Source: Arcobacteraceae bacterium (GTDB lineage: Bacteria; Campylobacterota; Campylobacteria; Campylobacterales; Arcobacteraceae). Taken from it: DNA of 64,000 nucleotides. Both the position numbers and the translations under genes were made by a program. Below, piece by piece: positions 2,308 to 32,040 of this stretch. The stretch lies in assembly GCA_963662945.1 (NCBI GenBank), contig OY759974.1, positions 1,440,001 to 1,504,000 of the forward strand, read 5' to 3'. Under the pieces are notes generated by a model. That model searched no databases. It was not told the origin of the DNA and saw only the letters and a list, made by a program, of their open reading frames with translations. The first letter of the stretch is position 1; each line of letters starts with the position of its first letter.

Positions 2308-3162
2308 TCAAATACTATCAATTATAATTAATATAAAAAATACAATCCCTAAATAACCATTTATAGTAAAGAAAGCTTTATCAATTTTTGTAAAATCTTT
2401 ATGCACTATAATGTGTTCCGTTGTTAACATAGCAACACTAACAAGAATTGCAAAATAACCAAATAGTCCAAGATTAGCTTCAACAACAAATAACAACCAA
2501 AAAACTACAGTAAGAAGATGCATTATTTTAGAAAATAACATTGTATTTTTTGCACCAAATTTTGATGGAATAGAATGTAATCCTAATTCTTTATCTACTT
2601 CAATATCTTGTAAAGAGTAAAGTAAATCAAATCCAGCTACCCAAAATAATACACCAATAGAAAGATAAATAGACCATAATGGTATAGTCTCACTTACTGC
2701 AACAACACCAGCTATAGGTGCAAGACCTAAAGAAATACCAAGAATGATATGTGCCAAAAATGAGAATCTTTTAAAATATGAGTAGCTTCCAATAATAAGT
2801 AAAATAGGTACTGATAAATAGAGTGCTAAATCATTTACAAAAAATGCAACTATTATAAAACCTAAAGCATTTAAAAGTGTAAAAATAAGTATTTGACTTG
2901 GTGCGATTCTTCCATCAACACTTGGTCTGTTTAGAGTTCTTGGATTTAATGCATCAATATCTCTATCTAAATATCTGTTAAAACCCATTGCAAAATTTCT
3001 AGCTGTAAGTGCTGCTAGTACACCTAATACTAACAGTTTCCATCCAAACCAACCCTCAGCAGCAACAATCATCGCTATAAATATAAAAGGCAATGAAAAA
3101 ATAGAATGTTGAAACATTACTAATTCATTGAAGTCTTTAATTTTTTTAAGTATTTTTTCCAT
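2308..3162 (-). CDS. mqnP: UbiA-family prenyltransferase of futalosine-pathway menaquinone synthesis
   Basis: NRYLDRDIDALNPRTLNRP and YSLQDIEVD Asp-rich motifs, multiple TM helices. Confidence 0.88.
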   Translation of the reverse strand: MEKILKKIKDFNELVMFQHSIFSLPFIFIAMIVAAEGWFGWKLLVLGVLAALTARNFAMGFNRYLDRDIDALNPRTLNRPSVDGRIAPSQILIFTLLNALGFIIVAFFVNDLALYLSVPILLIIGSYSYFKRFSFLAHIILGISLGLAPIAGVVAVSETIPLWSIYLSIGVLFWVAGFDLLYSLQDIEVDKELGLHSIPSKFGAKNTMLFSKIMHLLTVVFWLLFVVEANLGLFGYFAILVSVAMLTTEHIIVHKDFTKIDKAFFTINGYLGIVFFILIIIDSI

Positions 3163-3210
3163 AAGGGGGATTTTACTATAATGTTAATTATAGTTACCAA
3201 AAGGACGAAC

Positions 3211-4104
3211 TTGTATAAAGAAGTAGCCATCATAGCACCAACAGCATCAGGGAAAACTGCACTATCAATTCAATTAGCACATAAGACTAATTCGATTATT
3301 CTTTCACTTGATAGTTTATCTGTATATAAAGAGATAGATATAGCTTCTGCAAAACCAACGAAAGAAGAACGAGATGGTATAGTACACTTTGGTATTGACA
3401 AAGTATATCCCAATGAAAAATTTGATGTGGTGGAATTCATAGAGGAATATCAACAAGCAAAAAAGTATGCACAAAATGAGGGCAAAAATCTTATCATCGT
3501 TGGTGGTACAAGTTTTTATTTAAAGTCATTATGTGAAGGACTTTCAAAAGTTCCTACAATTTCAGAACAAACAAAAGAGATAGTCAAAGAAGAACTTAAT
3601 AATATAACTAAAAGTTATGAGTATTTAGTAAGTATTGATAAGAATTATATGAGTAAAATTGATAGAAATGATAAGTATAGAATAGAAAAAGCTCTAGAAA
3701 TTTATCATGAAACGAAATTAACTCCTAGTGATTTTTTTGAACAAAATAAACCAGAACCAATCATAAAAGATTTACAAATTTTTCAAATAGAAACTGAAGT
3801 TGAACTTTTAAGAAAAAGAATTTCTCAAAGAACGAAACAAATGATAGAAAATGGAATTATTGATGAGGTAATTTATTTAGAAAAAAAATATACTAGAAGT
3901 CCAAATTGTATGAAATCTATTGGAATTCTAGAAGTATTAGATTATCTTGATGGAAAGATTGATAAAGCAAAACTTGAAGAGGTTATTTCAATACATACAG
4001 CACAACTTGCAAAACGCCAAAGAACTTTTAATAAATCACAATTTCATAATATTACAAAAGAAAATCTAGAAAATTTAGAACAACATATCCTCAACATATT
4101 TTAG
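3211..4104 (+). CDS. miaA: tRNA dimethylallyltransferase
   Basis: PTASGKT, DSLSVYK, VGGTSFY, AKRQRTF. Start moved to TTG 3211 after AAGGA SD. Confidence 0.93.
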   Translation: MYKEVAIIAPTASGKTALSIQLAHKTNSIILSLDSLSVYKEIDIASAKPTKEERDGIVHFGIDKVYPNEKFDVVEFIEEYQQAKKYAQNEGKNLIIVGGTSFYLKSLCEGLSKVPTISEQTKEIVKEELNNITKSYEYLVSIDKNYMSKIDRNDKYRIEKALEIYHETKLTPSDFFEQNKPEPIIKDLQIFQIETEVELLRKRISQRTKQMIENGIIDEVIYLEKKYTRSPNCMKSIGILEVLDYLDGKIDKAKLEEVISIHTAQLAKRQRTFNKSQFHNITKENLENLEQHILNIF

Positions 4105-4269
4105 TTAATAATCTTTATAAATTAAATTGTTCCTTTTTGTTACAGTGGCATAGCTATTTTAATGTATAGATAAAGAGATTGTAAGTTTATATTTAATTAT
4201 AATTGGATATTATTTGTTCAATTACTGTCGGCAAATTATATACAAAGCTATGACACACAAGGGGAAAAA

Positions 4270-4659
4270 ATGGAACATATGGATTTTGCACATCCTTATT
4301 TCGGTGCATTTATAATGTTTGTATTAACATTTGGTGCATTTTTAGCGACAACAATGTTGTCACGATTTGTAGGTGGAAAACTTGCAAGAAAAGATACTGA
4401 AAAATTAAAATGTACACTGTATGAGTGTGGACCTGAGGTTACAAAACAGCCAAATACTATCTCTGTACAATTTTATTTAATGGCGTTATTGTTTATACTT
4501 TTTGATGTGGAGATAATCTTTATGTTTCCATGGGCTGTAGATTTTAAAGTATTAGGTTGGTTTGGATTTATTGAGATGATTCTTTTTATTGTTTTATTAA
4601 CAATTGGATTTATCTACGCATGGAAAAAAGGAGCGCTTGAATGGCACAGCATAAAGTAA
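4270..4659 (+). CDS. nuoA: NADH-quinone oxidoreductase subunit A
   Basis: [27 protein letters not shown]. Confidence 0.97.
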
Positions 4660-5150
4660 ATTATTTAAAAGATGGTGGAGCACCAATTAAATTAACTACA
4701 GTAGATAAAATAGTTAATTTTGGACGAAGTAATTCACTTTGGCCTATGACTTATGGTCTTGCATGTTGTGCTATTGAGATGATGGCATCTGGTGGTTCAA
4801 GATTTGACTTCGATAGATTTGGTACTATATTTAGAGCAAGTCCAAGACAATCAGATGTTATTGTTGTTGCTGGAACATTGACTAAAAAACACGCTGAGTT
4901 TATGAGAAGATTGTATGACCAAATGCCAGATCCAAAATGGGTTATCTCTATGGGTTCGTGTGCAAATACGGGTGGTATGTTTAATACTTATGCAACAGTA
5001 CAAGGTGTTGATAGAGTTATTCCTGTTGATATTTATTTACCAGGTTGTGCCCCAAGACCTGAAACTTTACAGTTTGCATTAATGATGTTACAACAAAAAA
5101 TAAGAAGAGAGCCTGCAGGTATGGCTCAAAGAGCAAAAAGGTTAATATAA
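4641..5150 (+). CDS. nuoB: NADH-quinone oxidoreductase subunit B
   Basis: [32 protein letters not shown]. Confidence 0.98.
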
Positions 5151-5151
5151 T

Positions 5152-5973
5152 ATGAGAACATATACACCAAAAGATGATGTACAGAGAAAATCTTATTATA
5201 ATGATAGATTTTATATCACACCTACATTAAAAAAAGAATCAGTTTATAGTGATGGAGTTTTTAGTTCAGATATCTCTAGTTTAAAAAATGTTGTAGAAGT
5301 ATTAGATTGTTATATTCAAGCTGATCATTTAGTGATTATTATTAATCCAGAAGATAATAAAAAAGCTATTACTCATTTAAAAGAGATTCGAGCTTATGAC
5401 TTTATGATGGAGTTAACTGCTGTTGATTATATAGCCGACAGAGGTGGTTTTGAAGTGGTTTATGAGATGTTATCAACTTCAAAACACAAAAGAATTAGAG
5501 TAAAAGCTTTTATAAAACAAGGTGATGCTATCGAGTCAGTTGAGTCTATTTTTAGAATGGCAAACTGGAGTGAACGAGAGATGTATGATATGTATGGTAT
5601 CTATGTAAATAATCACTCTTTATTAAAAAGAATTCTTATGCCTGATGATTGGGTTGGACATCCATTATTAAAAACATATCCATTACAAGGTGATGAAGCA
5701 GCTAGCTGGTATGAAGTAGATAAAATATTTGGTAAACAAGCTAGAGATATTGTTGGACCAGAATTAAGAGATGCTGCTTGTGTTGATAGATATGATACAC
5801 AAAGATTTGCTAGACTTGGACATGAAGTTCCAAAAGGTGTAGAGATAAGTGAAGGTAATGAACCAGATACACCAATTAGATATCAAGAAGAGGGTGGAGT
5901 TAAACTATTTGGGTTAACAGTTGTAACACCATTTGATAAAAAAGAAAAAATACAATTGAAAGAGAGAAAGTAG
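5152..5973 (+). CDS. nuoC: NADH-quinone oxidoreductase subunit C
   Basis: ANWSEREMYDMYGI, RILMPDDWVGHPLLKTYP. Confidence 0.96.
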   Translation: MRTYTPKDDVQRKSYYNDRFYITPTLKKESVYSDGVFSSDISSLKNVVEVLDCYIQADHLVIIINPEDNKKAITHLKEIRAYDFMMELTAVDYIADRGGFEVVYEMLSTSKHKRIRVKAFIKQGDAIESVESIFRMANWSEREMYDMYGIYVNNHSLLKRILMPDDWVGHPLLKTYPLQGDEAASWYEVDKIFGKQARDIVGPELRDAACVDRYDTQRFARLGHEVPKGVEISEGNEPDTPIRYQEEGGVKLFGLTVVTPFDKKEKIQLKERK

Positions 5974-7200
5974 ATGCAAGTTTCAAACAGATTAAAACCT
6001 TTCTTTGAAAATATAACTTTCGAAAGAGAAGATAATACAATGGTTGTGAACTTTGGTCCACAACATCCTTCTGCACACGGTCAACTTAGACTTATGTTAG
6101 AACTTCAAGGGGAAGAAGTAGTTAAAGCACATCCAGATGTTGGATACCTACACAGAGGTATTGAAAAAATGGCTGAAAATATGATTTATAATGAATTTTT
6201 ACCTACAACAGATAGAATGGACTATATCGCTTCAACTTCAAATAACTATGGATATGCTTTAGCGATTGAAAAATTAATAGGTGTAGAAGTACCAAGACGT
6301 GCTGAAGTCATTCGAACTATGTTGTTAGAGTTAAATAGAATTATTTCACATCTATTCTGGCTTGCAACACATGCACTAGATGTTGGTGCTATGTCAATTT
6401 TCCTTTATGCATTTAGAGAAAGAGAATTTGCAATGGATTTAATGGAAGATTACTGTGGGGCAAGACTTACACACAGCGCAGTAAGAATTGGTGGAGTTCC
6501 ATTAGATTTACCTAAAGGTTGGATTGCAAGTTTAGAAAAATATATGGAAATTTTAAGTTCACAAATTCCTATTTATGAAGGATTGTTAACAGAAAACAGA
6601 ATCTGGAAAATGAGACTTGAAAATGTAGGAATTATCCCAGTTGAGATGGCAAAATCTTGGGGAGTAACAGGTATTGCATTAAGAGGAAGTGGTGTTAAAT
6701 GGGATTTACGAAAAGAGATGCCTTATGGTTTATATCCTGAGTTAGATTTTGATATACCAATTTCAGATAAATGTGACTCTTATGGAAGATATAAGTGTTA
6801 TATGGCTGAGATGTATGAATCTATGAAAATATTAAAACAACTTATTCCAATGTATGAAGAATCTGATTCTCAACTTATGGCACATGCTCCACAATATATC
6901 TCATCTTCAAAAGAAGAGATGATGACTCAAAACTATTCATTGATGCAACATTTCGTTCTTGTAACTCAAGGTATGAGACCACCTGTTGGAGAAGTTTATG
7001 TGGCTACTGAATCACCAAAGGGTGAATTAGGTTTCTATGTTGTATCTGATGGAAGTCCTTATCCATATAAATTAAAATGTAGAGCGCCAAGTTTCTGGCA
7101 TACAGGTATTTTACAAGATCTTCTTCCTGGGCACCAATTAGCCGATGTTGTTACAATTATTGGTAACTTAAATATTGTATTTGGGGAGATTGATAGATAA
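5974..7200 (+). CDS. nuoD: NADH-quinone oxidoreductase subunit D
   Basis: [25 protein letters not shown]-terminal VFGEIDR. Confidence 0.98.
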
Positions 7201-7463
7201 TGAAACGGTATGATTTAAGAAACCACAAAGAAAACTTTATCCCTAGAATGGTAGAGTTAATGAACAATGAAATAGCTGATGGAGAAAATGGTATATTTTT
7301 ATTTGAAATAGGAGATTTTTCTTCTGTTCAAGCTTCAGCTGATTGTGTTAAAGAAAATAACTGGACACTTATGAATTCGTTAAAATTCAATGAAGTAGAT
7401 TGGACAGTTGTAATAAAAAAAGAAAAACCACCAGTTGTAGAAACTGAAGAGGGTGAAGAGTAG
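7200..7463 (+). CDS. Small Campylobacterota complex I subunit in the NuoE position (NuoX-like, no Fe-S motif)
   Basis: MKRYDLR...LFEIGDFS...LMNSLKFNEVDW pattern recalled from epsilon NuoE-family small proteins. Lies directly after nuoD. Only one Cys. Confidence 0.78.
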   Translation: MKRYDLRNHKENFIPRMVELMNNEIADGENGIFLFEIGDFSSVQASADCVKENNWTLMNSLKFNEVDWTVVIKKEKPPVVETEEGEE

Positions 7464-7476
7464 CAATCTACTCTTT
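7455..7476 (+). other. Intra-operon stem-loop
   Basis: gAAGAGTAG-caat-CTACTCTTt overlapping the stop of the 87-aa gene. Confidence 0.5.
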
Positions 7477-7490
7477 AAAGGATTGAAATT

Positions 7491-9503
7491 TTGAGTAAAG
7501 TATATTTTTCTAATTGGCAAGGATTAGTTGTAGATAATCGAGGAGTTCCGCAAGATGAGTGGGCTGAAGTATCTACAAAGTTACCTGTTAATTATGATGG
7601 GAACTCTGAGACTAAAGCTTTTGTTGGATGGGATGGTTTTGCAATATTTCAAAGTGATGTAGATGTTGTAAAACTTGCATTAAATTATGCAAGACAATAC
7701 CAAGAATATAGTGAAGCATGTGGTCGATGTACTCCAGGAAGATGGGGCGGACAAATTCTTTACGATATGATTGATAAAATAGCTCGTGGTGAAGGTGAAT
7801 TTAGTGATTTAGAACATATTAAAGAGATAAGTTCAACTATGACTACAACTTCAAAATGTGAAATAGGGAAAACAGTTCCTGTACCAATTTTAGGTATGAT
7901 AGAATATTTTGAAGAGCAATTTGTTCAGTTAATTAAAGAGAAGAAAAAATCACCTTGGTATGAACAAAATACTGAGAGATATATTGCAAATGTAACTGCA
8001 CCTTGTACTGATATGTGTCCTAGTCATGTTGATATCCCAGGATATATTGAGGGTGTAAGAGAATTGGATTTTGAAAATTCTTTAAAAGCGACAAGACAGA
8101 CAATGCCTTTAGCACATACGTGTGGAAGAGTTTGTCCACATCCTTGTGAAGATGCTTGTAGACGAGGAAATTTAGATGAACCAATTTCTATTATGGAATT
8201 AAAAAGAATTGGTGCAGATTACGAAACAGATCATAACCAAGATTGGTTTCATCCAATTAAACCTAAAAAACCAAGAAATGATGGCAAAAAAGTTGCTATT
8301 ATTGGAGCTGGACCTGCTGGGTTAACAGCTGCATATTATCTTGGACTAGAAGGAATTGCAGTAACTATTTTTGAAGAATTGCCAGTTCTTGGTGGAGAGG
8401 TTGCGGTTGGAGTTCCTGAATATAGAATGCCAATTGATAAATATAATAAAGATATTCAACTTGTTGCAGATTTACCAACAGTAGAGATTATAACAAACCA
8501 TAGAGTAACAGCAGATAGACTTAAAGAGATTGATTCTGAATATGATGCAACTATGTTAGGTTTTGGTGCGAGACTTTCAAAAGCTATAAGATGTGAAAAT
8601 GAACGAGAAGATATGGATGGATATTGGGGTGCAATATCTATGCTTGATAAGGTTAATTTATGGCATAAATATGGTATTGGAAGTCCAGCAAGTAATGAAT
8701 TAAAAGATAAAACTGTAGTTTGTGTTGGTGGTGGATTTACCTCTATGGACGTTGTAAGATGTAGTATTCGAGAGGGTGCTAAAAAAGTTATTATGCTCTA
8801 TAGACGAGATGAAAAAACAATTATTCGAAATACAACACTTGAAGAATACACTGAAGCAGTCGAAGAAGGTGTAGAGTTTATTTTTCATAGTGCAATTGAA
8901 AAATTAATTGAAAAAGATAATAAACTTACAGGAATGGTTGTAAATCAATATGAATTAGTACCAGCATCTGATGGAGGAAGACCTGAGTTAGTAAAAATAG
9001 AAGGTGCTGATATGGAAATAGAGTGTGACTTTGTTATACCTGCAGTTTCTCAAGCTTGTGATCTTCAAATTTTACCAAAAGAGTGGGAGTTAGAGATGAC
9101 TTCTTGGGGCACATTACAAACAAATGGAAAAGATTTTATGACAAGTAGACCAGGTCTTTTTGCAGCAGGAGATTGTGAATATGGTCCAATGACTATAGTA
9201 AATGCAGTTGGACAGGCAAAAAGAGCAGCTTCTGTAATTAGTCGATATATTTATGATGGAAAAGTATCACTTTTAGACGAAGAGATAATGGAAGATCATA
9301 TGAATAAACTCAAAGTTTATAATAAAAATGAAAAAATTACTGGTTGGATGCCAGGTATTCCTCGAGAAGTGAGTGAAAAATTAGAAACAGAAGTAAGAAA
9401 AAACAATAATAAAGAAGTAAATTTAGGATTTACCGCACAAGAAGCACAAGCTGAAGCAGAGCGATGTATGCGATGTTATTATTTAGGGATGGTGTCAGTA
9501 TGA
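7491..9503 (+). CDS. SfrB/GltD-like FAD- and Fe-S-containing NAD(P)H oxidoreductase
   Basis: NuoF-type 4Fe-4S motif (ACGRCTPG...SKCEIG), GltD clusters (PCTDMCP, CGRVCPHPCEDAC), FAD GAGPAG, GGGFTSMD and YRR, FAAGD, terminal EAERCMRC. Confidence 0.9.
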   Translation: MSKVYFSNWQGLVVDNRGVPQDEWAEVSTKLPVNYDGNSETKAFVGWDGFAIFQSDVDVVKLALNYARQYQEYSEACGRCTPGRWGGQILYDMIDKIARGEGEFSDLEHIKEISSTMTTTSKCEIGKTVPVPILGMIEYFEEQFVQLIKEKKKSPWYEQNTERYIANVTAPCTDMCPSHVDIPGYIEGVRELDFENSLKATRQTMPLAHTCGRVCPHPCEDACRRGNLDEPISIMELKRIGADYETDHNQDWFHPIKPKKPRNDGKKVAIIGAGPAGLTAAYYLGLEGIAVTIFEELPVLGGEVAVGVPEYRMPIDKYNKDIQLVADLPTVEIITNHRVTADRLKEIDSEYDATMLGFGARLSKAIRCENEREDMDGYWGAISMLDKVNLWHKYGIGSPASNELKDKTVVCVGGGFTSMDVVRCSIREGAKKVIMLYRRDEKTIIRNTTLEEYTEAVEEGVEFIFHSAIEKLIEKDNKLTGMVVNQYELVPASDGGRPELVKIEGADMEIECDFVIPAVSQACDLQILPKEWELEMTSWGTLQTNGKDFMTSRPGLFAAGDCEYGPMTIVNAVGQAKRAASVISRYIYDGKVSLLDEEIMEDHMNKLKVYNKNEKITGWMPGIPREVSEKLETEVRKNNNKEVNLGFTAQEAQAEAERCMRCYYLGMVSV

Positions 9504-11782
9504 GCGAAAGAATACAACATAGAGGAAAGCTGATAACTATAACTATTGATGGTAAAAGTTGTGAAGGTATTTTTGGTCAAACAATACTTGAAATTGCAAG
9601 AGCAAATGATATCTATATCCCAACTATGTGTTATCTGACAAAAGTTTCCCCAATAACTGCATGTAGAATGTGTGTAGTTGATGTGGAAGGTTTGGATAAG
9701 CCTGTTTTATCGTGTCAAGAAAAAGCAGTAGATGGTACAGTGGTTACTACAAATAATGAAGAGCTTTTTAGACATAGACAAAATATTATGAAAATGTATG
9801 ATGTAAATCATCCATTACAATGTGGAGTTTGTGATAAAAGTGGAGAGTGTGATTTACAAAATAAAACATTAGAATTTAGTGTAGATTCACAAGAGTTTGC
9901 AGTAAAAGAACCAGCACGTAAGAAAAAGAAATGGGGTATTTTAGGTTATGATCCAAGCCTTTGTATTATGTGTGAGAAATGTGTACATACTTGTAATGAA
10001 GTTATAGGAAGTGCTGCACTTTATGTAAAACCAGGTGGTTATAAATCAATAATTGATATGAAGTTTTCAAGATGTGAACAGTGTGGAGATTGTATCTCTG
10101 TGTGTCCAGTTGGTGCTTTAGTATCAAATGAATTTAAATATACAGCAAATGCTTGGGAATCAAAAAAAATACCAGCAACTTGTGCTCATTGTAGCAGCGG
10201 GTGTGCTTTATATTACAATGTTAAAAATTCAGAAATATCAGACCCTTATAATAAAAAAATCACAAGAGTAACAAACGACTTTGACTTTAACTATTTATGT
10301 GGAGCTGGAAGATTTGGTTTTGAGTTTGAAAATAAAGGAAGTGGCAAAAATCCTCAAGAATTACAAAAAGCTATTGAAACTATTAAAAATAGTGAAGCAA
10401 TAATATTTAATTCTTATATTACAAATGAAGAAGCAAAAATACTTCAAGCATTAAAAGAAAATATAGGTATAAAACTTATTAATGAAGATGCTTATAATTA
10501 TAAAAACTTTTTAGAAAATTATAAAAAAGCAAGTGGTAATTCACTTTATACAGCAGATTCAAAAGATATAGAAGCTAGTGATGCAGTTATAATGATAGGA
10601 ACAAGAGTTAGCAGAGACAATCCTGGAATTAAGTATGCTACAAATATTGCAACAAAAAAACAAAGAGCAGAATTTATTTATATGCATCCAATGGATGATA
10701 TAGCACTACAAAATAAATATACACAATTTGTAAAATATGAAGCAGGTAGTGAAGAAGGGGTTATAGCATTACTTGCTTCTTATCTAATAAAAGATGTTCC
10801 AGTTGAACATAAAGAATTTTTTGATGATTTAGATATTGGGTATTTAAGTGGTGAATCAAGTGTAGGTGAAGAAGAGTTAGACAATATTGTAAAAAAACTT
10901 ATAAGAAGAAAAAATAAAACACTTATTATTGGTGAAGACCTCTATGGACACTCAAATGGTTCAAATATTGCAAAGCTAGTTGGACTTATTGATAAATGTA
11001 CAGATTTTAATGTTATGTTAGTTCCATCACAAACAAATACTCTGGGTGTAAGTTTAATATGTGATTTAGATGCAAACATAGATGCAGGTTTTAAAACTGT
11101 AGGTTATAATGAAAATGCTGATTATGTAATAAGTAGTAATGGTGATGGAGACTTCCAAGTTCCAGCACTTAATCAACAAGAAGGTACTTTTGTTGATTTA
11201 AATAAAAAAGTTGTTAATACAAATGTTGCACTTTCATTTGATGGTTATTGTTTAAATGATATTGCAAATGGATTACTTAAAGACAACAAAGTAAACAGTA
11301 TAGACTATACTTCACAACTTCCAGCGAAGAGCGGATTTAAAAATATTTGTTTTGATGAATTAAATAATGGTTATAATAAATATGGTGAAGATTTGAGAGG
11401 ATACTATTTAGTAAATAGTAAATGTGATGAAGAAGGGTGTATTTTAGAGGAAGTTTCAGATATAAATACGTATAATGGGACGGTAATTTATAGATGTGAG
11501 CCACTTCATCAATTTAATAAAAGCACAGCAAAATCTTTACAACTACAATCTAATGATAGTTTAAGAGGAAGTGCATCTTTTGCAACAGCTGCAAAGATAA
11601 AAGATGGAGATACAGTTAATATAGTATATAATAATAGTATAACAACTAAAAAATTTAAGATTGATACAACAATAAAAGGTACGATAGCGCTTTATCCTAC
11701 ATATAGTAGTGGGTTAAGTAGTGACTTAATACCTAGTGGGTATAGATTTAAGCAAGTTCAAATTCAAAAGGTTGAAGAGTAA
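9500..11782 (+). CDS. nuoG: NuoG/SfrA-like Fe-S protein, paralog 1 (keeps CxxCxxxC...C cluster)
   Basis: 2Fe-2S (MCY...ACRMC...SC), HPLQCGVCDKSGEC, two 4Fe-4S motifs, CAHCSSGC...LCGAG. Start set at ATG 9500 (ATGA overlap). Confidence 0.82.
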   Translation: MSERIQHRGKLITITIDGKSCEGIFGQTILEIARANDIYIPTMCYLTKVSPITACRMCVVDVEGLDKPVLSCQEKAVDGTVVTTNNEELFRHRQNIMKMYDVNHPLQCGVCDKSGECDLQNKTLEFSVDSQEFAVKEPARKKKKWGILGYDPSLCIMCEKCVHTCNEVIGSAALYVKPGGYKSIIDMKFSRCEQCGDCISVCPVGALVSNEFKYTANAWESKKIPATCAHCSSGCALYYNVKNSEISDPYNKKITRVTNDFDFNYLCGAGRFGFEFENKGSGKNPQELQKAIETIKNSEAIIFNSYITNEEAKILQALKENIGIKLINEDAYNYKNFLENYKKASGNSLYTADSKDIEASDAVIMIGTRVSRDNPGIKYATNIATKKQRAEFIYMHPMDDIALQNKYTQFVKYEAGSEEGVIALLASYLIKDVPVEHKEFFDDLDIGYLSGESSVGEEELDNIVKKLIRRKNKTLIIGEDLYGHSNGSNIAKLVGLIDKCTDFNVMLVPSQTNTLGVSLICDLDANIDAGFKTVGYNENADYVISSNGDGDFQVPALNQQEGTFVDLNKKVVNTNVALSFDGYCLNDIANGLLKDNKVNSIDYTSQLPAKSGFKNICFDELNNGYNKYGEDLRGYYLVNSKCDEEGCILEEVSDINTYNGTVIYRCEPLHQFNKSTAKSLQLQSNDSLRGSASFATAAKIKDGDTVNIVYNNSITTKKFKIDTTIKGTIALYPTYSSGLSSDLIPSGYRFKQVQIQKVEE

Positions 11783-14226
11783 TGGATAATATGATAAATG
11801 TAACTATTGATGGCAAGCAGTGTCAAGCAAAAGAGGGCGAATTTATATTAAATGTTGCAAGAGCAAATGGTATTTTTGTTCCTGCTATTTGTTATCAAAC
11901 AAAGTGTTCACCAACACTAGCTTGTCGATTGTGTTTAGTAGAAGCAGATGGAAAACAAGTATATGCATGTAATGCCAAAGCAAAAGATGGTATGCAAATC
12001 ACTGTAAATACTCCAAACATTGAAAAAGAAAGACGAGCTATTATGGAAGTTTACGATGTAAATCATCCATTACAATGTGGGGTTTGTGATCAAAGTGGGG
12101 AGTGTGAACTACAGAATTACTCTTTATATATGAAAGTTGATTCTCAAAACTATGCAGTTCAAGATGTAAATAGACCAGCATCAAACTGGGGAGTTATGAA
12201 ATATGACCCAGGACTTTGTATTGTATGTGAAAAGTGTGTAACTGTATGTAAAGATATGATAGGTTCGAATGCACTTGGAACTGTAAAAAGAGGTGCTGAA
12301 GCACTTGATAAAGAATACAAAGATAATATGCCAAAAGATGCTTATGCTATGTGGAATAAGCTTAATAAAAACCTGATTGGATTTGAAGAAGAAAAGTGTA
12401 TTGACTGTGGAGAGTGTATCGCAGTTTGTCCAGTTGGTGCATTAGTAAGTTCAGATTTCCAATATAAATCAAATGCATGGGAATTAACAAAAGTACCAGC
12501 ATCAAATCCTTATTCATCAGATTGTTCACTTATGTACTATGAAGTGAAGCATGATACGATTGAAAATAATACTGAGAAAAAAATCTATAGAGTAACAAAC
12601 GATGCACATTATGTGAGTTTAAGTGGGGCAGCAAGATTTGGATTTGATTATGTAAATAAATCAACTAAAGATGAAATTGCATTTAAAAATGCAGTTGAAG
12701 CTGTAAAGAACGCAGAATCAATTATATTTAATTCTTTTATTACAAATGAAGAAGCTCAAATACTTCAAAAAATCAAAGAACAAACAGGTGCAAAACTTAT
12801 CAATATAGATGCATTAAAATATAAAAACTTTTTAGAAGGATATTCATCGGTTACAGGGAAAAGTTTTTACAATGCTACATTAGAAGATGTTCATAATAGT
12901 AACTTTGTAATTTCTGTAGGATCATTTTTAAAATCAGATGCACCAGTTGTGAAATATGCTTTTAATAATGCACTTACTATGAACAAAGGAGCAGGATTAT
13001 ATTTCCATCCGATGGGAGATAATCATATAAAAGGATTTAGTAAAAATATAGAGACAATTGCCTCTAATCCATTAAGTGAAGAGGCAATTTTATATTTTAT
13101 ACTAGACAAATTTGGTAAAGATTTACCAAGTATCGTTTCAGAATACTTAACATCACAAAACGAAACAAGAACTAAAACAGTTGTAGAAACTGTAAAAGAA
13201 GAAGTTGTGGAAACTGTTACTGATGAAGAAACAGGAGAAACAAAAGAGGTTACTAAAATGGTACCTAAAAAAGTATCAACTGAAGTAGAATATGTGTATA
13301 GTAAACTACTTGATATTATTGGTGCTGATGCTACATTATTAGAAACATTAGAAACTATGCTTGATAAAAAAGATAGTTTTAGTTTAATTATTGGTGAAGA
13401 TTGTATCTCTCATCCAAATAGTGAGAATATTTCAAAATTAGCTGGAATGATAGAAAAATATACAGATTTTAAAGTATTAGTAGTACCAACACAAACAAAT
13501 ACTTTAGGGGTAAGTTTATTATGTGATTTGGATGTAATAGCTACTGGAAAAACTGTTGGATATAATATGAAAGCAGATTTCCAATTAAGTGCATTGGGTG
13601 ATGGTGATCTTGATATGCCAGTACTTTCTCAACAAGAGGGAACCTTTGTAAATATTAATAAAACAGTTGTACCAACAAATGCAGCAGTTGTTTATAGTGG
13701 ATATACTTTAAACGACATAGCAAATGAAATTTTAGGCAATAAAGTTCATAACACAATAGATTATACAGCAACTCTATTCAATAAAGTAGCTTTTGATTCT
13801 TTAGAAAATCATTATTCTAATGATAGAGTTGAACATAGAGGATATATTTTAGAGTCACAAACAGTTACAGTTTTAGATGAAAATGTAAAAAATGAGTTTA
13901 AAACAATAAAATGTGAAGAAAATGAGTATATTATTTACAGTGGAAATCCAATAAATCAATTTAATGAGTTTACAGCTGTATCAAATCAACTAAAAAATGA
14001 TATAGTTGCTTTATATTTATCAGAAAGCTTAAAAGAAAAACTACAATTAGAAGATGATAATAAAGTTGAAGTAATATCAAATGGAAATACAATTATACTT
14101 GATATAAGAGTGGACAAAGATTTAGTTGGTGAGATAGCTTATGTTCCAACATTTGATAAAAATATAGAAACGAAAAATTTATTTGATAACTGTAGATACA
14201 GTAAAGCAAATTTAAGAAGGGTGTAA
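11782..14226 (+). CDS. nuoG: NADH-quinone oxidoreductase subunit G, paralog 2 (epsilon-type)
   Basis: ICY...ACRLC...AC, HPLQCGVCDQSGEC, CIVCEKC, CIDCGECIAVCP, MPKDAYAMWNK insert. Directly before nuoH. Confidence 0.9.
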   Translation: MDNMINVTIDGKQCQAKEGEFILNVARANGIFVPAICYQTKCSPTLACRLCLVEADGKQVYACNAKAKDGMQITVNTPNIEKERRAIMEVYDVNHPLQCGVCDQSGECELQNYSLYMKVDSQNYAVQDVNRPASNWGVMKYDPGLCIVCEKCVTVCKDMIGSNALGTVKRGAEALDKEYKDNMPKDAYAMWNKLNKNLIGFEEEKCIDCGECIAVCPVGALVSSDFQYKSNAWELTKVPASNPYSSDCSLMYYEVKHDTIENNTEKKIYRVTNDAHYVSLSGAARFGFDYVNKSTKDEIAFKNAVEAVKNAESIIFNSFITNEEAQILQKIKEQTGAKLINIDALKYKNFLEGYSSVTGKSFYNATLEDVHNSNFVISVGSFLKSDAPVVKYAFNNALTMNKGAGLYFHPMGDNHIKGFSKNIETIASNPLSEEAILYFILDKFGKDLPSIVSEYLTSQNETRTKTVVETVKEEVVETVTDEETGETKEVTKMVPKKVSTEVEYVYSKLLDIIGADATLLETLETMLDKKDSFSLIIGEDCISHPNSENISKLAGMIEKYTDFKVLVVPTQTNTLGVSLLCDLDVIATGKTVGYNMKADFQLSALGDGDLDMPVLSQQEGTFVNINKTVVPTNAAVVYSGYTLNDIANEILGNKVHNTIDYTATLFNKVAFDSLENHYSNDRVEHRGYILESQTVTVLDENVKNEFKTIKCEENEYIIYSGNPINQFNEFTAVSNQLKNDIVALYLSESLKEKLQLEDDNKVEVISNGNTIILDIRVDKDLVGEIAYVPTFDKNIETKNLFDNCRYSKANLRRV

Positions 14227-14229
14227 GAG

Positions 14230-15189
14230 ATGGATAATGATATTATAATGACGATTGTCAAAGTATTAGTTATTTTGCTTGTGTTTTCAGCATTAGCTGG
14301 ATTTACTACATATATAGAGAGAAAAGTTTTAGCATTTATGCAAAGAAGACCAGGTCCACTGCACGTTGGACCTTATGGAGTATTACAAATTTTAGCAGAT
14401 GGTGCTAAACTTTTTACAAAAGAAGACTTCATCCCACAAAATGCTAATAGACTGATATTTATGGTAGCACCAGTTATAACTGCTGCTACTGCATTTATTG
14501 CGATGACAGCAGTTCCATTTGTACCAGGTGTGATTGTATCTGATATTAATGTTGGTGTATTATTTGTATTAGGTGTTATGGCAACAGGACTTTATGGTCC
14601 ACTTCTTGGTGGTATGTCACAAGCAAATAAATGGGGACTTCTTGGAGGTGCGAGAACTGCAATTCAACTTTTATCTTATGAAGTTGTTACAGGTTTATCA
14701 ATCTTGGCACCATTAATGTTAGTTGGGAGTTTATCATTAATTGATATTAACAACTATCAAGCTGGAGGAGTTTCAAATTGGTTAATCTGGACACAACCAG
14801 TAGCATTTTTCTTATTTTTAATTGCTGGATATGCTGAAACAAACAGAACACCATTTGACCTTTTAGAGCATGAAGCTGAGGTTGTTGCTGGATATGCTAC
14901 AGAGTATTCGGGTATGAGATGGGGTATGTTCTTTATTGGAGAGTATGCAAACCTATTTACTGTTTCATTTTTAACAGCATTAATGTTCTTGGGTGGATTT
15001 AATGATTTATGGTTTATTCCAGGTGCTATTGCTATTTTACTTAAAGTAATGTTTTTAATATTTTTATTTTTATGGACAAGAGCATCTTGGCCACATGTAA
15101 GACCAGATCAACTTATGTGGTTATGTTGGAAAATATTAATGCCATTAGCATTATTTAATATTTTAGTTACAGCTATTGTAGTTATATAG
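14230..15189 (+). CDS. nuoH: NADH-quinone oxidoreductase subunit H
   Basis: ERKVLAFMQRRPGP, AETNRTPFDL, RPDQLM. Confidence 0.98.
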   Translation: MDNDIIMTIVKVLVILLVFSALAGFTTYIERKVLAFMQRRPGPLHVGPYGVLQILADGAKLFTKEDFIPQNANRLIFMVAPVITAATAFIAMTAVPFVPGVIVSDINVGVLFVLGVMATGLYGPLLGGMSQANKWGLLGGARTAIQLLSYEVVTGLSILAPLMLVGSLSLIDINNYQAGGVSNWLIWTQPVAFFLFLIAGYAETNRTPFDLLEHEAEVVAGYATEYSGMRWGMFFIGEYANLFTVSFLTALMFLGGFNDLWFIPGAIAILLKVMFLIFLFLWTRASWPHVRPDQLMWLCWKILMPLALFNILVTAIVVI

Positions 15190-15203
15190 TAAGGGTTTTA
15201 ATT

Positions 15204-15827
15204 ATGAGTTTTAAAGAATTAAAAGATAGAAATGTGGGAAGCCAAAACTATGTGATGATGGATATTGAAGATTATCCAACATCTGGTTGGGATAAGTTCA
15301 AACAAATTATGGATAGAGGATTAAGCGTTGAATTATTTAAAGGGTTAGGGATAACTTTTAAAATAATGAAAGATGTGCTGTTCAATGGACAATCACACAA
15401 TACACAATATCCTATAGAAAAATTACCTATAAGTCCAAGATATAGAGCTGTTCATAAGCTTTTAGGATTATTAGAAAGTGGAAACAATAGATGTATTGGT
15501 TGTGGGCTTTGTGAAAAAATATGTATTGCAAAATGCATAAGAATGGATACAAAAATTGATGAAAATTCAAGAAAAGAAGTTATGGAATACACTATTAACT
15601 TAGGAAGATGTATTTTCTGTGGTTATTGTGCTGAAGTATGTCCAGAACTTGCTATTGTACATGGTGATAGATATGAGAATGCTAGTGAACAAAGAGAACA
15701 TTTTGTATTAAAAGACGATCTTCTTACTCCGTTTGCTGAACTTCAAAATCAACTTGAATATCAAGGATTTGGTGCAATTTCACCAGATGCTGATAAAAAA
15801 ATTAAAAAAACGCCATTGGCTTATTAA
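15204..15827 (+). CDS. nuoI: NADH-quinone oxidoreductase subunit I
   Basis: RCIGCGLCEKIC and RCIFCGYCAEVCP. Confidence 0.97.
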   Translation: MSFKELKDRNVGSQNYVMMDIEDYPTSGWDKFKQIMDRGLSVELFKGLGITFKIMKDVLFNGQSHNTQYPIEKLPISPRYRAVHKLLGLLESGNNRCIGCGLCEKICIAKCIRMDTKIDENSRKEVMEYTINLGRCIFCGYCAEVCPELAIVHGDRYENASEQREHFVLKDDLLTPFAELQNQLEYQGFGAISPDADKKIKKTPLAY

Positions 15828-15838
15828 AGGATTAAGAT

Positions 15839-16417
15839 ATGTTTGAAGTAGTAGCTTTTTATCTGTTTGCTTTTTTAACAATAGCAATGTTTAGTATTGT
15901 AGTGATTACAAAAAATCCACTATATGCTTTAAGTTCACTGGCAGCTGGGATGATATTTATATCAGCATTTTTCTTCCTTTTAGGAGCTGAATTTTTAGGT
16001 GCAGTACAAATTGTTGTATATACAGGGGCTGTAATGGCTTTATATGCATTTGGTATGATGTTTTTTGATTCAATAAATGATGTAAAAGAATCAGTAGCAA
16101 ATCCAAGAGTAACATTTATGATGACAGGAATTATTGCATTATTAGTAGTAGCAATATTTATGGCTCCAATTATTGGTGCAAATGCAACAGCACATTATCC
16201 AATACATGAAGCATATGGAAATACACAAGATATCGGTTTAGTATTATTTACAAAATACCTTGTTCCTTTTGAAGTAGCTGCAGTTATGTTACTTGTAGCT
16301 ATGATAGGTGGAATTATACTTGCTGGTAAAAAAATGGATATTTCAATTACTCAATTAACAGAGCAAGAGATTGATAACCATAAAACAGATACAGAGATAG
16401 CAAAGGATATTAAATGA
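15839..16417 (+). CDS. nuoJ: NADH-quinone oxidoreductase subunit J
   Basis: AEFLGAVQIVVYTGAVM, PFEVAAVMLLVAMIG. Confidence 0.96.
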   Translation: MFEVVAFYLFAFLTIAMFSIVVITKNPLYALSSLAAGMIFISAFFFLLGAEFLGAVQIVVYTGAVMALYAFGMMFFDSINDVKESVANPRVTFMMTGIIALLVVAIFMAPIIGANATAHYPIHEAYGNTQDIGLVLFTKYLVPFEVAAVMLLVAMIGGIILAGKKMDISITQLTEQEIDNHKTDTEIAKDIK

Positions 16418-16719
16418 GTGTAACATTAAATGATTATTTAATACTAAGTACAATTATCTTTATGATAGGTATGTATGGAGCATTAAGAAGAAAAAATTTA
16501 CTGATGTTATTTTTCTCAACAGAGATTATGTTAAATGCAGTAAATATTGGAATGGCTGCAATTTCTAAATTTCATGGAGATTTAACTGGTCAAATGTTTG
16601 CATTTTTTATTATTGCAATTGCGGCAAGTGAAGTAGCAATAGGTCTAGGTCTTTTAGTATTGTGGTTTAAACGAAACAATAATATTAACTTAGATTCATT
16701 ACAAAGTATGAAGGGATAG
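16414..16719 (+). CDS. nuoK: NADH-quinone oxidoreductase subunit K
   Basis: RKNL...EIMLNA...AASEVAIGL, 101 aa. Confidence 0.97.
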   Translation: MSVTLNDYLILSTIIFMIGMYGALRRKNLLMLFFSTEIMLNAVNIGMAAISKFHGDLTGQMFAFFIIAIAASEVAIGLGLLVLWFKRNNNINLDSLQSMKG

Positions 16720-16723
16720 AGGT

Positions 16724-18655
16724 ATGGAGAGTTATTTATATATTGCACTTTTTGCTCCACTTGTTGGATCATTATTTGCAGCACTATTTGGTAATAGTCC
16801 AAAGAAATTGTTTGTAGGTGTTATCACTTCTGCACTTTTAGCAGTTTCATTAATAGCATCAATTAGTTTATTGATGCATGTTTATCTAACAGAATCAATT
16901 GTTCATGTGAAAATGTTAGATTGGATTGTTATAGGTAATGTTGATATTCCTTTTGGATTTGTTGTTGATCAAGTAAGTGTTGTTATGATGGTAGTTGTTA
17001 CAATCGTTTCAACAATGGTACATATTCATTCAATAGGATATATGGATCACGATAAAAGTTTTAATAGATTTTTTGCTTGGTTATCAGCGTTTGTATTCTC
17101 AATGATGATTCTTGTTATGTCTGATAACTTTGCTGGATTATTTATAGGTTGGGAAGGAGTTGGTCTTTGTTCTTGGGGACTAATTGGATTTTGGTATCAT
17201 AAAGAAGATATTAAAAGAAGTAAAAATATTGAAGAATCACCATATTCTACATTATCACCATACTCTTCAAAATCTCCATCATGGGCGGCAAATGAAGCAT
17301 TTATTATGAATAGAGTTGCTGACCTTGGTATGTTGATTGGATTGTTCTTAATTTTTTGGAATATTGGTTCTTTACAATATAATGTTGTATTTTCACAAAT
17401 TGGAACACTTGATCATGGTTTAATAGTAGCAATTGGAGCTTTTCTTTTTATAGGTGCTATGGGTAAATCAGCACAGTTTCCATTTAATACATGGCTTGCA
17501 AATGCTATGGAAGGTCCAACACCAGTTTCAGCACTTATTCACGCTGCAACAATGGTAACAGCAGGGGTATATTTAGTAATTAGAGCAAATGAGATATTCA
17601 CAGTTATTCCTGAAGTTGGATATTTTATAGCTAGTCTAGGTGCATTTGTAGCAATTGGTGCAGCATTAATGGCATTAGTTGCAACTAATATGAAGAAAAT
17701 TATTGCATTCTCAACATTATCACAACTTGGATATATGTTTGTTGCAGCTGGTCTTGGTGCATACTGGGTAGCATTATTCCACCTTGCAACTCATGCATTC
17801 TTTAAATCTGTATTATTCTTAGGTGCAGGTAATGTTATGCATGCAACAAATGATGAGATTAATATTAAAAAAATGGGTGGTTTAGCTAAACATATGCCAC
17901 AAACAGCATTAATTATGACAATAGCTTCAGTAGCACTTGCAGGTATTTTCCCATTAGCAGGTTTCTTCTCAAAAGATTTAATTTTAGAAGTTGCTTATGG
18001 AAGTCATGCATATGTTTTATGGACAGTATTATGGATAACAGCAGGTTTAACAGCCTTTTATTCATTTAGACTTGTAATGTATGTATTTCATGGAAAAGAA
18101 AATTATGATCATGCAAAAGTACATCCACATGAAACATATCCATTTGTAATTGCTGCTATGTCACCGTTAGCAATCTTAGCAATTTGTGCAGGATGGTTTG
18201 AACATCAATTTGTAGAGATGGTAACTAAAGTATTACCACCACTTGATATTCATGTGAATCCAACAGTATTTTATTCACTAATTGCAGTAACAACTGCTAT
18301 TGCATTAGGTGGTATTATATTTGCTGTAGTGAAATTTAAAAAAGATGGTACATATTACAGTGAAAAAATGAAAAATAGATTTTGTTATAAAGTATTAGCA
18401 AATCAATATTATTTACCACATTTTTGGGAAGCAGCAGTAAGTAAACCTTATACAAAATTATCTGAATTTAGTTGGAAAGAGATTGATTTAAAAATTATTG
18501 ATACTATTGTAGATGGTATTGCAAAAGGTATTTATGGTGGTGGAGAAGCTGGAACTTCTATGCAATCAGGTAACTTATCAAAAGCTTTAAAATGGATGGG
18601 AATAGGTATATTTATTCTTATCATATTAGTTGTAGTTTTTGGCAATTTGAAGTAA
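16724..18655 (+). CDS. nuoL: NADH-quinone oxidoreductase subunit L
   Basis: GWEGVGLCS, GKSAQFP, AMEGPTPVSALIHAATMV. Confidence 0.98.
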   Translation: MESYLYIALFAPLVGSLFAALFGNSPKKLFVGVITSALLAVSLIASISLLMHVYLTESIVHVKMLDWIVIGNVDIPFGFVVDQVSVVMMVVVTIVSTMVHIHSIGYMDHDKSFNRFFAWLSAFVFSMMILVMSDNFAGLFIGWEGVGLCSWGLIGFWYHKEDIKRSKNIEESPYSTLSPYSSKSPSWAANEAFIMNRVADLGMLIGLFLIFWNIGSLQYNVVFSQIGTLDHGLIVAIGAFLFIGAMGKSAQFPFNTWLANAMEGPTPVSALIHAATMVTAGVYLVIRANEIFTVIPEVGYFIASLGAFVAIGAALMALVATNMKKIIAFSTLSQLGYMFVAAGLGAYWVALFHLATHAFFKSVLFLGAGNVMHATNDEINIKKMGGLAKHMPQTALIMTIASVALAGIFPLAGFFSKDLILEVAYGSHAYVLWTVLWITAGLTAFYSFRLVMYVFHGKENYDHAKVHPHETYPFVIAAMSPLAILAICAGWFEHQFVEMVTKVLPPLDIHVNPTVFYSLIAVTTAIALGGIIFAVVKFKKDGTYYSEKMKNRFCYKVLANQYYLPHFWEAAVSKPYTKLSEFSWKEIDLKIIDTIVDGIAKGIYGGGEAGTSMQSGNLSKALKWMGIGIFILIILVVVFGNLK

Positions 18656-18668
18656 GGAAGGAAGGTAA

Positions 18669-21679: not shown

Positions 21680-21688
21680 AACACTATA

Positions 21689-21713
21689 GAACTAGTAGCT
21701 ATACTACTAGTTC
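21689..21713 (+). terminator. Stem-loop after the nuo operon
   Basis: GAACTAGTAG-ctata-CTACTAGTTC perfect 10-bp stem. No clear U-tract. Confidence 0.6.
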
Positions 21714-21799
21714 GACTTAAACTACTCTTAATATAAATTTCATTACAATTGCGTCTCTACTTTATAAGGTAAGCATTGAGAATATATAAGTATTTTGAC

Positions 21800-21903
21800 T
21801 GCTTCTCTTAGACCTTTACAATTAACTTTAAAGGCAACTCCCCAGGGTAGGAATACAGCAAGGAACCTTTATCTTTGGTGTGTTTAGGTATCTGGGAGGA
21901 GTA
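21800..21903 (+). ncRNA. ffs: Signal recognition particle 4.5S RNA
   Basis: Domain IV signature CAGG-GTA-GGAA-TAC-AGCA. Ends pair (TGCTTCTCTTAGA / TCTGGGAGGAGTA). About 104 nt. TACAAT at 21744. Confidence 0.9.
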
Positions 21904-21979
21904 CTTTTCTTATATAAAAAAAATCATAAAACTTATTAAAATAAATAACAGTAGAAAGAATTTTTACTGCATAAAAGAT

Positions 21980-22141
21980 TTACTTATTAACAGCTTTTTT
22001 AAGACTATCTAATGCATCACTTGTCGCTTCTTTAGTTGAATCCATAGCTTTGTCAAGTTTATCACCTGCTGTTTCTTCACCACAGCCTGCTAAAGTAATG
22101 AGAACAAAAAAAGTTCCTAACAGTAATAATGTTTTTTTCAT
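21980..22141 (-). CDS. Small lipoprotein (53 aa)
   Basis: MKKTLLLLGTFFVLITLAGC lipobox after AAGGA SD. Start moved to ATG 22141. Confidence 0.8.
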   Translation of the reverse strand: MKKTLLLLGTFFVLITLAGCGEETAGDKLDKAMDSTKEATSDALDSLKKAVNK

Positions 22142-32015: not shown

Positions 32016-32040
32016 AATATCCTCCTTATTTGGATTTTAA

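Follow-up and report, generated by a model that had tools for sequence, protein, structure and literature searches.

A complex I operon of an Arcobacteraceae bacterium with a predicted NADPH-binding flavoprotein in the place of NuoF

In a stretch of 64,000 nucleotides (nt) from an Arcobacteraceae bacterium (Campylobacterota; GenBank assembly GCA_963662945.1, contig OY759974.1, positions 1,440,001 to 1,504,000; this whole stretch is called the window), we analyzed a respiratory complex I operon in which a flavoprotein of 670 amino acids (aa), designated Fl, and two NuoG paralogs, designated G1 and G2, lie between nuoX and nuoH. We propose, with a probability of about 0.6, that the operon encodes a reversible, proton-coupled NADPH:menaquinone complex I, which is probably run in reverse in this likely autotroph. 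This proposal is supported by the domain make-up of Fl, its invariant cofactor residues, its kinship with NfnA and StnC and the conserved gene order, by the lack of any other complex I NuoF, the presence of GltD elsewhere and of MqnP just upstream, and by the tracking of ATP-citrate lyase by typical Fl. It is further supported by a 2019 preprint (bioRxiv 10.1101/717884), whose accessible text reaches the same hypothesis independently for Sulfurimonas. Because that preprint already gives the layout and the reverse flow for Sulfurimonas, the core idea is not new, and the novelty claimed in an earlier reading of the window's sequence alone (the original prediction) falls. What our analysis apparently adds is the recognition of G1 as a full NuoG paralog, the kinship of NuoY with G1, the tracking of ATP-citrate lyase by Fl, the free-standing Fl-G1 pairs and the partners of the Fl family outside the phylum.

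The genes form one tightly packed operon on the forward strand (window positions 4270-21679), in the order nuoA-B-C-D, nuoX, Fl, G1, G2, nuoH-N:

4270-4659, forward: nuoA, above the curated Pfam and NCBIfam cut-offs
4641-5150, forward: nuoB, above the curated Pfam and NCBIfam cut-offs
5152-5973, forward: nuoC, above the curated Pfam and NCBIfam cut-offs
5974-7200, forward: nuoD, above the curated Pfam and NCBIfam cut-offs
7200-7463, forward: nuoX, 87 aa, small Campylobacterota-specific subunit (PF16514, NADH-UOR_E, NuoX family, E 4.5e-35)
7491-9503, forward: Fl, 670-aa flavoprotein, TTG start (Pfam, NCBIfam and PDB sequence matches)
7566-7955, forward: NuoF-like domain of Fl, residues 26-155 (TIGR01959 nuoF positions 290-409 match residues 26-147; the C-terminal parts of NuoF, HydB and HoxF in the PDB also match)
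7962-9476, forward: predicted FAD/NADPH module of Fl, residues 158-662 (alignments to 9bov_A, 9n5u_A, 8oh5_C and 4ylf_B)
9464-11782, forward: G1, NuoG paralog, 772 aa (NF006305, the NCBIfam model of Campylobacterota NuoG, 853 bits, in two stretches)
10502-11053 and 11531-11707, forward: parts of G1 homologous to NuoY (NuoY profile)
11782-14226, forward: G2, NuoG paralog, 814 aa (NF006305, 1092 bits, full length)
14230-15189, forward: nuoH, above the Pfam and NCBIfam cut-offs
14230-21679, forward: nuoH, I, J, K, L, M and N, above the Pfam and NCBIfam cut-offs

The nuoD stop overlaps the nuoX start, 27 nt separate nuoX from Fl, the open reading frame of Fl shares 40 nt with that of G1, which in turn shares a single nt with G2, and G2 is followed by nuoH after 3 nt. 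The 87-aa NuoX-like gene, the 670-aa flavoprotein and the two NuoG paralogs that the original prediction had placed, packed or overlapping, between nuoD and nuoH were thus all recovered, and its statement that the operon has no NuoF binding flavin mononucleotide (FMN) and NADH was borne out. No gene of the operon, Fl included, matched the NuoF FMN domain (PF01512), and the sole match in the 2.50-Mb genome (99.99% complete) was HoxF, approximately 0.87 Mb away, in a hoxEFUYH cluster with a maturation protease directly after recQ (G000:C1 ~2321000-2326300; L005 9056-14246). A separate gene (G000:C1:601313-602551) passed the TIGR01318 model with 501.6 bits against a cut-off of 482.95, whereas Fl reached only 221.6 bits and is therefore not GltD proper. 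The gene for the menaquinone prenyltransferase MqnP adjoins the operon upstream on the opposite strand. NuoX matched PDB chain 2lxr_A, deposited as 'NADH dehydrogenase I subunit E' (E 3.5e-18), and was present in 25/25 aligned nuo-embedded operons, of the Fl type and the NuoY type alike. Searches against PDB sequences found no chain from an entire Campylobacterota complex I, the isolated NuoX-like 2lxr being the sole match.

Pfam assigned NADH_4Fe-4S (PF10589; 72 bits against a cut-off of 23.5) to Fl residues 63-145, Fer4_20 (PF14691) to residues 158-248 and Pyr_redox_2 (PF07992) to residues 266-576. By these profile matches, Fl joins the last third of NuoF to a GltD/NfnL-type module for NADPH and flavin adenine dinucleotide (FAD), which is how the comparison of 7491-9503 with NuoF, GltD and NfnL models proposed in the original prediction came out. 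The NuoF-like 4Fe-4S motif joined to a GltD body that had been described there stood as regards the domains and the motifs GAGPAG (residues 272-277), GGGFTSMD (413-420) and YRR (437-439; nt 8799-8807); the 4Fe-4S motif itself is incomplete, with G83 in place of a cysteine. The predicted dinucleotide motifs are G272-x-G274-x2-G277 for FAD and G413-x-G415...D420 with Y437, R438 and R439 for NADPH, and the predicted ligands of two [4Fe-4S] clusters are C172, C176, C215, C219, C223, K238, C659 and C662. These module ligands, both dinucleotide motifs and YRR were invariant in 15/15 family representatives and in 23/23 Campylobacterota orthologs. The NuoF-like cluster site reads C77-x2-C80-x2-G83...C123 and so retains three of the four cysteines of the canonical CxxCxxC...C; position 83 is glycine in 23/23 Campylobacterota orthologs, the NuoF-like domain has no other invariant cysteine or histidine, and the third motif position is cysteine in 8 of the 13 out-of-phylum family representatives (counted by eye). 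The single cysteine of NuoX was considered as a fourth ligand of this site and rejected, since it is not conserved.

The closest solved relatives of Fl (residues 164-663) were 9bov_A (E 1.3e-81), 9n5u_A (NfnA; E 4.4e-75) and 8oh5_C (E 7.6e-68), which are large subunits of Bfu-type transhydrogenases, and NfnB/NfnL chains ranked next (4ylf_B, E 8.3e-66). According to the accessible parts of the source papers, 9BOV is Caldicellulosiruptor NfnABC and the code 8OH5 occurs in the Sporomusa StnABC paper. The segment RC659xxC662 is C-terminal in Fl and in NfnA/StnC and N-terminal in Thermotoga maritima NfnB, and Fl is therefore predicted to have a permuted, StnC-like topology. Counted along an ungapped stretch of the alignment, K238 of Fl corresponds to K170 of StnC, which is reported in the available text of the Stn paper as the lysine ligand of the FAD-proximal cluster; the same text reports the FAD of StnC to be non-bifurcating and to feed a linear cluster chain. 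The YRR of Fl aligns with that of T. maritima NfnB and of the NfnA/StnC chains, which agrees with the predicted status of this motif as typical of NADP(H)-using enzymes of the GltD family, and the accessible part of the preprint cites YRR as the 2'-phosphate binders of T. maritima NfnB (bioRxiv 10.1101/717884). StnC/NfnA chains (8oh5_C, 9bov_A, 9n5u_A) thus share with Fl the permuted order with the CxxC segment last, the lysine cluster ligand and YRR. They differ in that their module is inserted in a NuoG-like protein and feeds a bifurcating NuoF/NuoE-like pair, whereas in Fl it is joined to what remains of a NuoF, the FMN domain being absent, and the operon has no NuoE.

The original prediction had likened the pair to SfrAB of Geobacter, a comparison that holds for the domain layout of Fl and fails for G1. 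Fl has the layout of SfrB and FdhB-like proteins, namely a single chain of ~650 aa in which a NuoF-type 4Fe-4S domain precedes a GltD-type FAD/NADPH body, and aligns over its full length with 14 family representatives. SfrB itself carries an N-terminal NuoF-type domain. As far as the accessible descriptions go, SfrAB and the class annotated as 'formate dehydrogenase (NADP+) beta subunit' likewise set a GltD-like, NADPH-binding subunit beside a partner with a NuoG-type N-terminus. Unlike them, the window has its pair inside a nuo operon, a three-cysteine rather than a four-cysteine site, and in G1 a partner without a convincing molybdopterin domain: PF00384 scored 21.6 bits, below its cut-off of 24, and PF01568 was absent, while the partner proteins found outside the phylum scored 184-238 bits on PF00384. 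G1 is instead 40% identical to G2 over 824 aligned columns, end to end, and by this alignment is a full-length paralog of the complex's own NuoG.

The predicted cluster ligands of G1 comprise C56, C67, C70 and C84 for a [2Fe-2S] cluster, the His-Cys3 set H116, C120, C123 and C129, an 8-Cys dicluster site (C167-C177 and C204-C214) and the N7-type set C240, C243, C247 and C279. The 8-Cys dicluster represents one cluster more than canonical NuoG holds. In an alignment of 21 G1, 19 G2 and four single NuoG sequences, the [2Fe-2S], His-Cys3 and dicluster ligands were kept in all or nearly all; the N7-type CxxCxxxC...C was kept in 20-21/21 G1 but only 12/19 G2, and the window's G2 has N242, S245, S249 and S281 at these positions. 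Relative to G1, G2 carries insertions near residues 170-205 and 460-520. G2 is 43-47% identical to the single NuoG of four genomes with NuoY-type operons, the kind found in Campylobacter and Helicobacter, and the clade had a support of 98; on this basis, G2 is the ortholog of the single NuoG in those operons. Compared with canonical NuoE-NuoF-NuoG, Fl keeps the last third of NuoF, and G1 and G2 keep N1b, N5 and N4-type ligands; the window differs in having no FMN domain and no NuoE, in its two NuoG proteins and in a predicted FAD/NADPH module replacing FMN/NADH.

In the accessible text of bioRxiv 10.1101/717884, Sulfurimonas Suden_1824 is an NfnB-like replacement of NuoF with conserved YRR and cluster cysteines, accompanied by two NuoG copies that are 36% identical, the shorter one without two regions, an arrangement conserved in Sulfurimonas and Sulfurovum. 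A reversed complex I making NADPH and ferredoxin is proposed there, and Weerakoon and Olson 2008 are credited with noting the layout. The S. denitrificans complex I so described (Suden_1824, Suden_1823, Suden_1822) resembles that of the window in having a YRR flavoprotein where NuoF would be expected and, after it, two NuoG copies, of which the second is the longer and has two extra stretches comparable to the insertions of G2. It is unlike in its host: the window belongs to the Arcobacteraceae, whose best-known member reportedly has canonical nuoEF, and only 4/16 searched genomes of that family carry Fl. Other papers, in their accessible parts, describe an 'epsilon' complex I linked to ferredoxin or flavodoxin and leave the flavoprotein unmentioned.

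To describe its distribution, we surveyed 301 Campylobacterota genomes of at least 90% completeness, the window's genome included. A full-length Fl ortholog (54-100% identity) was present in 55 of them and a further one lay at a contig end, giving 56 typical cases. By genome family, typical Fl occurred in 23/23 genomes of f7, 6/6 of f8, 11/12 of f4, 4/4 of f12, 3/3 of f6, 2/2 of f9, 1/1 each of f10, f13 and f14, and 4/16 of f1, the window's family; it was found in 0/124 of f3, 0/7 of f5, 0/11 of f11 and 0/90 of f2. The last of these families holds variants only, in 11 genomes: five lack the first ~30-40 residues and six lie in longer frames of 691-966 aa. The remaining 12 f1 genomes gave ordinary NuoF-length matches, in agreement with a review whose accessible text assigns canonical nuoEF to A. 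butzleri. At 100% coverage, Fl was 74% identical to its counterpart in Nitratifractor salsuginis, 70% in Hydrogenimonas sp. SS33 and 66% in Sulfurimonas sp. HSL-1716; its closest named relatives (93% identity) came from metagenome-assembled Arcobacteraceae genomes. Gene order was compared in 43 loci, 27 found by Fl similarity and 16 hand-picked from 10 families. The survey of nuo gene order suggested in the original prediction thereby gave a consistent picture: D-X-Fl-G1-G2-H was complete in 38/43 loci, three more were cut by contig ends but consistent, and the slot between nuoX and G2 was kept in 41/43. In four f2 genomes without ATP-citrate lyase (L041-L044; G216, G279, G253 and G046), we observed a divergent version of the whole X-Fl-G1-G2 arm, with Fl of 641-962 aa (one with an insertion of ~300 aa), G1 of up to 1046 aa and G2 of up to 1012 aa, one G2 being split into 309 + 537 aa.

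ATP-citrate lyase (PF16114) was found in 66/301 genomes, among them that of the window (E 2e-80). It was present in 54 and absent in 2 of the 56 genomes with typical Fl, and present in 12 and absent in 233 of the 245 genomes without it. Within the window's family, the same 4/16 genomes carry both Fl and ATP-citrate lyase. Fl is hence strongly, though not absolutely, linked to autotrophy. In family f5, ATP-citrate lyase occurs in 7/7 genomes (G005 and six others) and Fl in 0/7; the NuoY profile gave one match of about E 1e-18 to 1e-21 in all seven, and G005 had no G2 match at E 1e-10. The complex I input arm there may be a third variant.

From the parts, motifs, gene order and distribution described above, we infer the following scheme for nucleotide preference, cluster order, attachment to the membrane arm and direction of flow. 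NuoX, Fl, G1 and G2 would form the input arm, replacing NuoE, NuoF and NuoG. Fl would bind NADP(H) and FAD in a non-bifurcating module of the StnC/NfnA kind; single electrons would leave FAD and travel via both [4Fe-4S] clusters of Fl to the three-cysteine NuoF-like site. They would continue along the Fe-S chain of G1 to G2, NuoI, NuoB and finally menaquinone, with the C-terminal half of G1 anchoring the arm to the complex. In the reverse mode, the proton motive force would drive NADPH formation from menaquinol. That the enzyme mostly runs in reverse is probable because ATP-citrate lyase is present and PntB was not found; the suggestion in the original prediction of a module supplying an NADPH input or a reverse-flow output fits this genome, without the SfrAB-like origin that it implied for G1.

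Several points weigh against this scheme. The PntB search of the genome found no match, but it did not extend to further sources of NADPH, ferredoxin:NADP reductase for example. ATP-citrate lyase is missing from 13/67 Fl-bearing genomes (2 typical, 11 f2 variants) and 12 lyase genomes have no Fl; related genomes are, moreover, non-independent samples. The three-cysteine NuoF-like site has no fourth cysteine in any of the 23 orthologs and may or may not hold a cluster. Two loci (L024 and L028) carry an Fl and G1-like pair alone, so the pair need not be encoded with complex I. Literature searches for later biochemical or structural work on an Fl-type complex I found none.

Less probably, the enzyme could have two ports, with G2 keeping the ferredoxin/flavodoxin site of the C. 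jejuni enzyme and Fl and G1 adding an NADP(H) site. Running backwards, such an enzyme would yield reduced ferredoxin as well as NADPH, as proposed in the accessible text of the Sulfurimonas preprint (bioRxiv 10.1101/717884); forward, electrons from NADPH would be split between menaquinone and ferredoxin. The orthology of G2 with the single NuoG of flavodoxin-type operons speaks for such a second port, as do the 8-Cys dicluster in both G1 and G2 and the need of the reverse tricarboxylic acid (TCA) cycle for both reductants. The genome also has three genes of the 2-oxoacid:ferredoxin oxidoreductase (POR/OOR) type and three flavodoxin-domain genes. We consider this arrangement unlikely, as the FAD module of Fl is of the StnC/NfnA kind, with an FAD reported in the accessible literature as non-bifurcating, and our analysis identified no ferredoxin-binding element.

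Four C. jejuni-type operons, sampled from genera g12, g19, g11 and g23, read A-B-C-D-X-Y-G-H, with NuoY of 247-339 aa; none of the four NuoY proteins matched Pfam, which holds no family for NuoY. BLASTP of the g12 NuoY against G1 gave E 1e-12 (G1 residues 671-770) and E 8e-11 (389-524), compared with only E 0.53 against G2, and the g23 NuoY matched G1 at E 3e-11. A profile built from the four NuoY sequences matched 22/22 G1 sequences, with two collinear segments and 49-130 bits in 21 cases. Among 25 sequences of G2, single NuoG and canonical NuoG, eight scored 12-31 bits and 17 gave no match. On the window's genome, the profile matched inside G1 only (E 4.7e-25 and 2.0e-10), and no separate NuoY gene of the expected 240-350 aa was found there, NuoX being present. 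In a tree on the 246 columns covered by NuoY, G2 and single NuoG formed one side of a branch (Shimodaira-Hasegawa-like approximate likelihood ratio test, SH-aLRT, ~98-99) and all four NuoY fell on the G1 side; a tree with the G1 sequences together and NuoY outside was not rejected by the approximately unbiased (AU) test (p-AU 0.089). On the strength of these profile and tree results, G1 has a truncated relative in the NuoY of Campylobacter/Helicobacter-type operons. Since the alignment of G1 with G2 runs from end to end, truncation of G1 into NuoY is more parsimonious than assembly of G1 from NuoY.

NuoY-type operons lack Fl together with the Fe-S half of G1, and retain parts of its C-terminal half in the form of NuoY. 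This joint absence fits a division of labor in which Fl and the N-terminal half of G1 would be a redox unit and the C-terminal half of G1 a structural unit. The enzymes of C. jejuni and H. pylori share NuoX with the window, have a NuoG orthologous to G2 and a NuoY homologous to parts of the C-terminal half of G1; they are unlike it in having neither Fl nor the Fe-S half of G1, and their donor is reported, in the accessible literature, to be flavodoxin. In the parts of the literature available, NuoY itself is either credited with helping to pass on electrons from flavodoxin or labeled NuoF. We found no earlier statement that NuoY derives from NuoG in a search of a limited library, whose silence is not proof of absence. 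For this subunit of the C. jejuni and H. pylori enzymes, the link to G1 suggests an origin that can be tested. Derivation of NuoY from the N-terminal domain of Fl was also considered and rejected, a query with that domain having matched 0/63 g12 and 0/34 g23 genomes. Genomes of genus g2 (e.g. G009) have canonical nuoEF plus one NuoY-profile match of about E 1e-35 and may carry a second, NuoY-type operon, such as the accessible literature reports for Sulfurospirillum multivorans.

Outside the phylum, full-length relatives of Fl were 30-42% identical and included named proteins from Deferribacter autotrophicus and Flexistipes; the accessible part of the Deferribacter paper annotates such a gene as sfrB, beside an SfrA-like gene. 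We examined 16 metagenome loci in which the match included the N-terminal domain of Fl. The next same-strand gene had a NuoG-type N-terminal Fe-S module in 11 of them, and these partners were six [FeFe]-hydrogenases, two FdhA-like proteins, one HoxU-like protein, one NuoG-like protein cut by a contig end and the partner in L060. Of the other five, one had an FdhA-like gene two genes upstream, one had unrelated neighbors and three were uninformative. Across this wider family, the NADPH-type module is a recurrent adaptor, combined with the NuoG-type Fe-S domains of hydrogenases, of formate dehydrogenases and of complex I alike.

Three sets of these loci have further features. L060 (3178-11950; metagenome, 50% G+C) reads nuoC-nuoD-Fl-like-NuoG/Fdh-like (875 aa)-nuoH-I-J; its Fl-like protein has 650 aa, 40% identity to Fl, a four-cysteine site and YRR, and with no nuoX and a single NuoG the locus may represent the same replacement made independently. 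Upstream lies a 552-aa Fdh-like fragment, and a second GltD-type match on the same contig (L098) overlaps this locus and extends upstream. In L103 (3687-6812, 1041 aa) and L068 (1569-4790, 1073 aa), a complete NuoF (FMN domain, SLBB and 4Fe-4S) is fused to a GltD-type module and adjoins NuoE-like and FdhA- or NuoG-like genes; such fusions are a plausible precursor state of Fl. In L061 (4112-6949), an SfrB-like gene is paired with an FdhA-like partner that occupies two adjacent frames (363 + 577 aa), which may reflect an in-frame selenocysteine stop or a break.

The soluble nature of these partners, namely the [FeFe]-hydrogenase, FdhA-like and HoxU-like proteins, raises the question of whether Fl and G1 are a soluble, SfrAB-like NADPH:acceptor oxidoreductase merely co-transcribed with complex I, in which case ferredoxin or flavodoxin would feed a 13-subunit X-G2 complex as in C. 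jejuni. The stand-alone pairs in L024 and L028 point the same way: an Fl of 671 aa and a G1-like protein of 774 aa (split into 645 + 99 aa in L028) sit among housekeeping genes, between purine or malate-dehydrogenase genes and a selD-yedF pair on the opposite strand, and nuo genes are absent from the 10 kb upstream and the 2-6 kb downstream. In the tree, however, the G1 of L024 nests among operon-borne G1 sequences of the Arcobacteraceae, the window's family, and the stand-alone pair therefore looks secondary. The slot between nuoX and G2 is kept in nearly all loci, and the retention of NuoY, a G1 remnant, in nuo operons that lost Fl would be hard to explain had G1 never been in the complex. 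We therefore regard a merely soluble pair as distinctly unlikely. That Fl uses NADH, making the enzyme an ordinary NADH:quinone oxidoreductase with a swapped flavin module, is highly improbable: specificity is not certain from sequence and the genome needs some route of NADH oxidation, but the YRR invariant in 23/23 orthologs and 15/15 family representatives aligns with the 2'-phosphate-binding YRR of T. maritima NfnB, and NADPH is the nucleotide used by the nearest solved relatives according to the accessible parts of their papers.

Taking the NADPH-linked, reversible complex I as the preferred reading, we tentatively suggest, as a possible though doubtful extension, that the X-Fl-G1-G2 arm is the older state of complex I in Campylobacterota. 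It would have been reversible, connected to NADP(H) by one port and perhaps to ferredoxin/flavodoxin by another, and would have supplied reductant to the reverse TCA cycle. The Campylobacter/Helicobacter enzyme would then be a stripped-down descendant in which Fl and the Fe-S half of G1 were lost, perhaps more than once, the rest being kept as NuoY, and NuoY would mark the anchoring place of the lost arm. The Fl-type operon, present in nearly every searched genome of families carrying ATP-citrate lyase, is the leading candidate for the source of the NADPH and reduced ferredoxin with which sulfur- and hydrogen-oxidizing Campylobacterota fix carbon.

A promoter and terminator scan of window positions 3000-22500 was uninformative, with 93 promoter-like sites against 117.8 expected. 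Elsewhere in the genome, the hoxE-F-U-Y-H cluster is complete and would offer a direct route from H2 to NADH, and a second NuoH-family match outside the window (G000:C1:2103774-2104571, 158 bits, 300-aa frame) may be part of a membrane-bound hydrogenase-type complex. Two Arcobacteraceae genomes that have canonical nuoE-nuoF carry an open reading frame of 428 aa between nuoF and a short nuoG of 478 aa (L058 4434-5720, L059 3962-5248), and that of L058 matched citrate synthase (Pfam E 7.5e-129). The window begins with a PAS histidine kinase gene (15-1163), and downstream of the nuo operon it contains a flagellar block (30651-40327) with fliD, flgK and flgH on the reverse strand and flgI and fliM on the forward strand.

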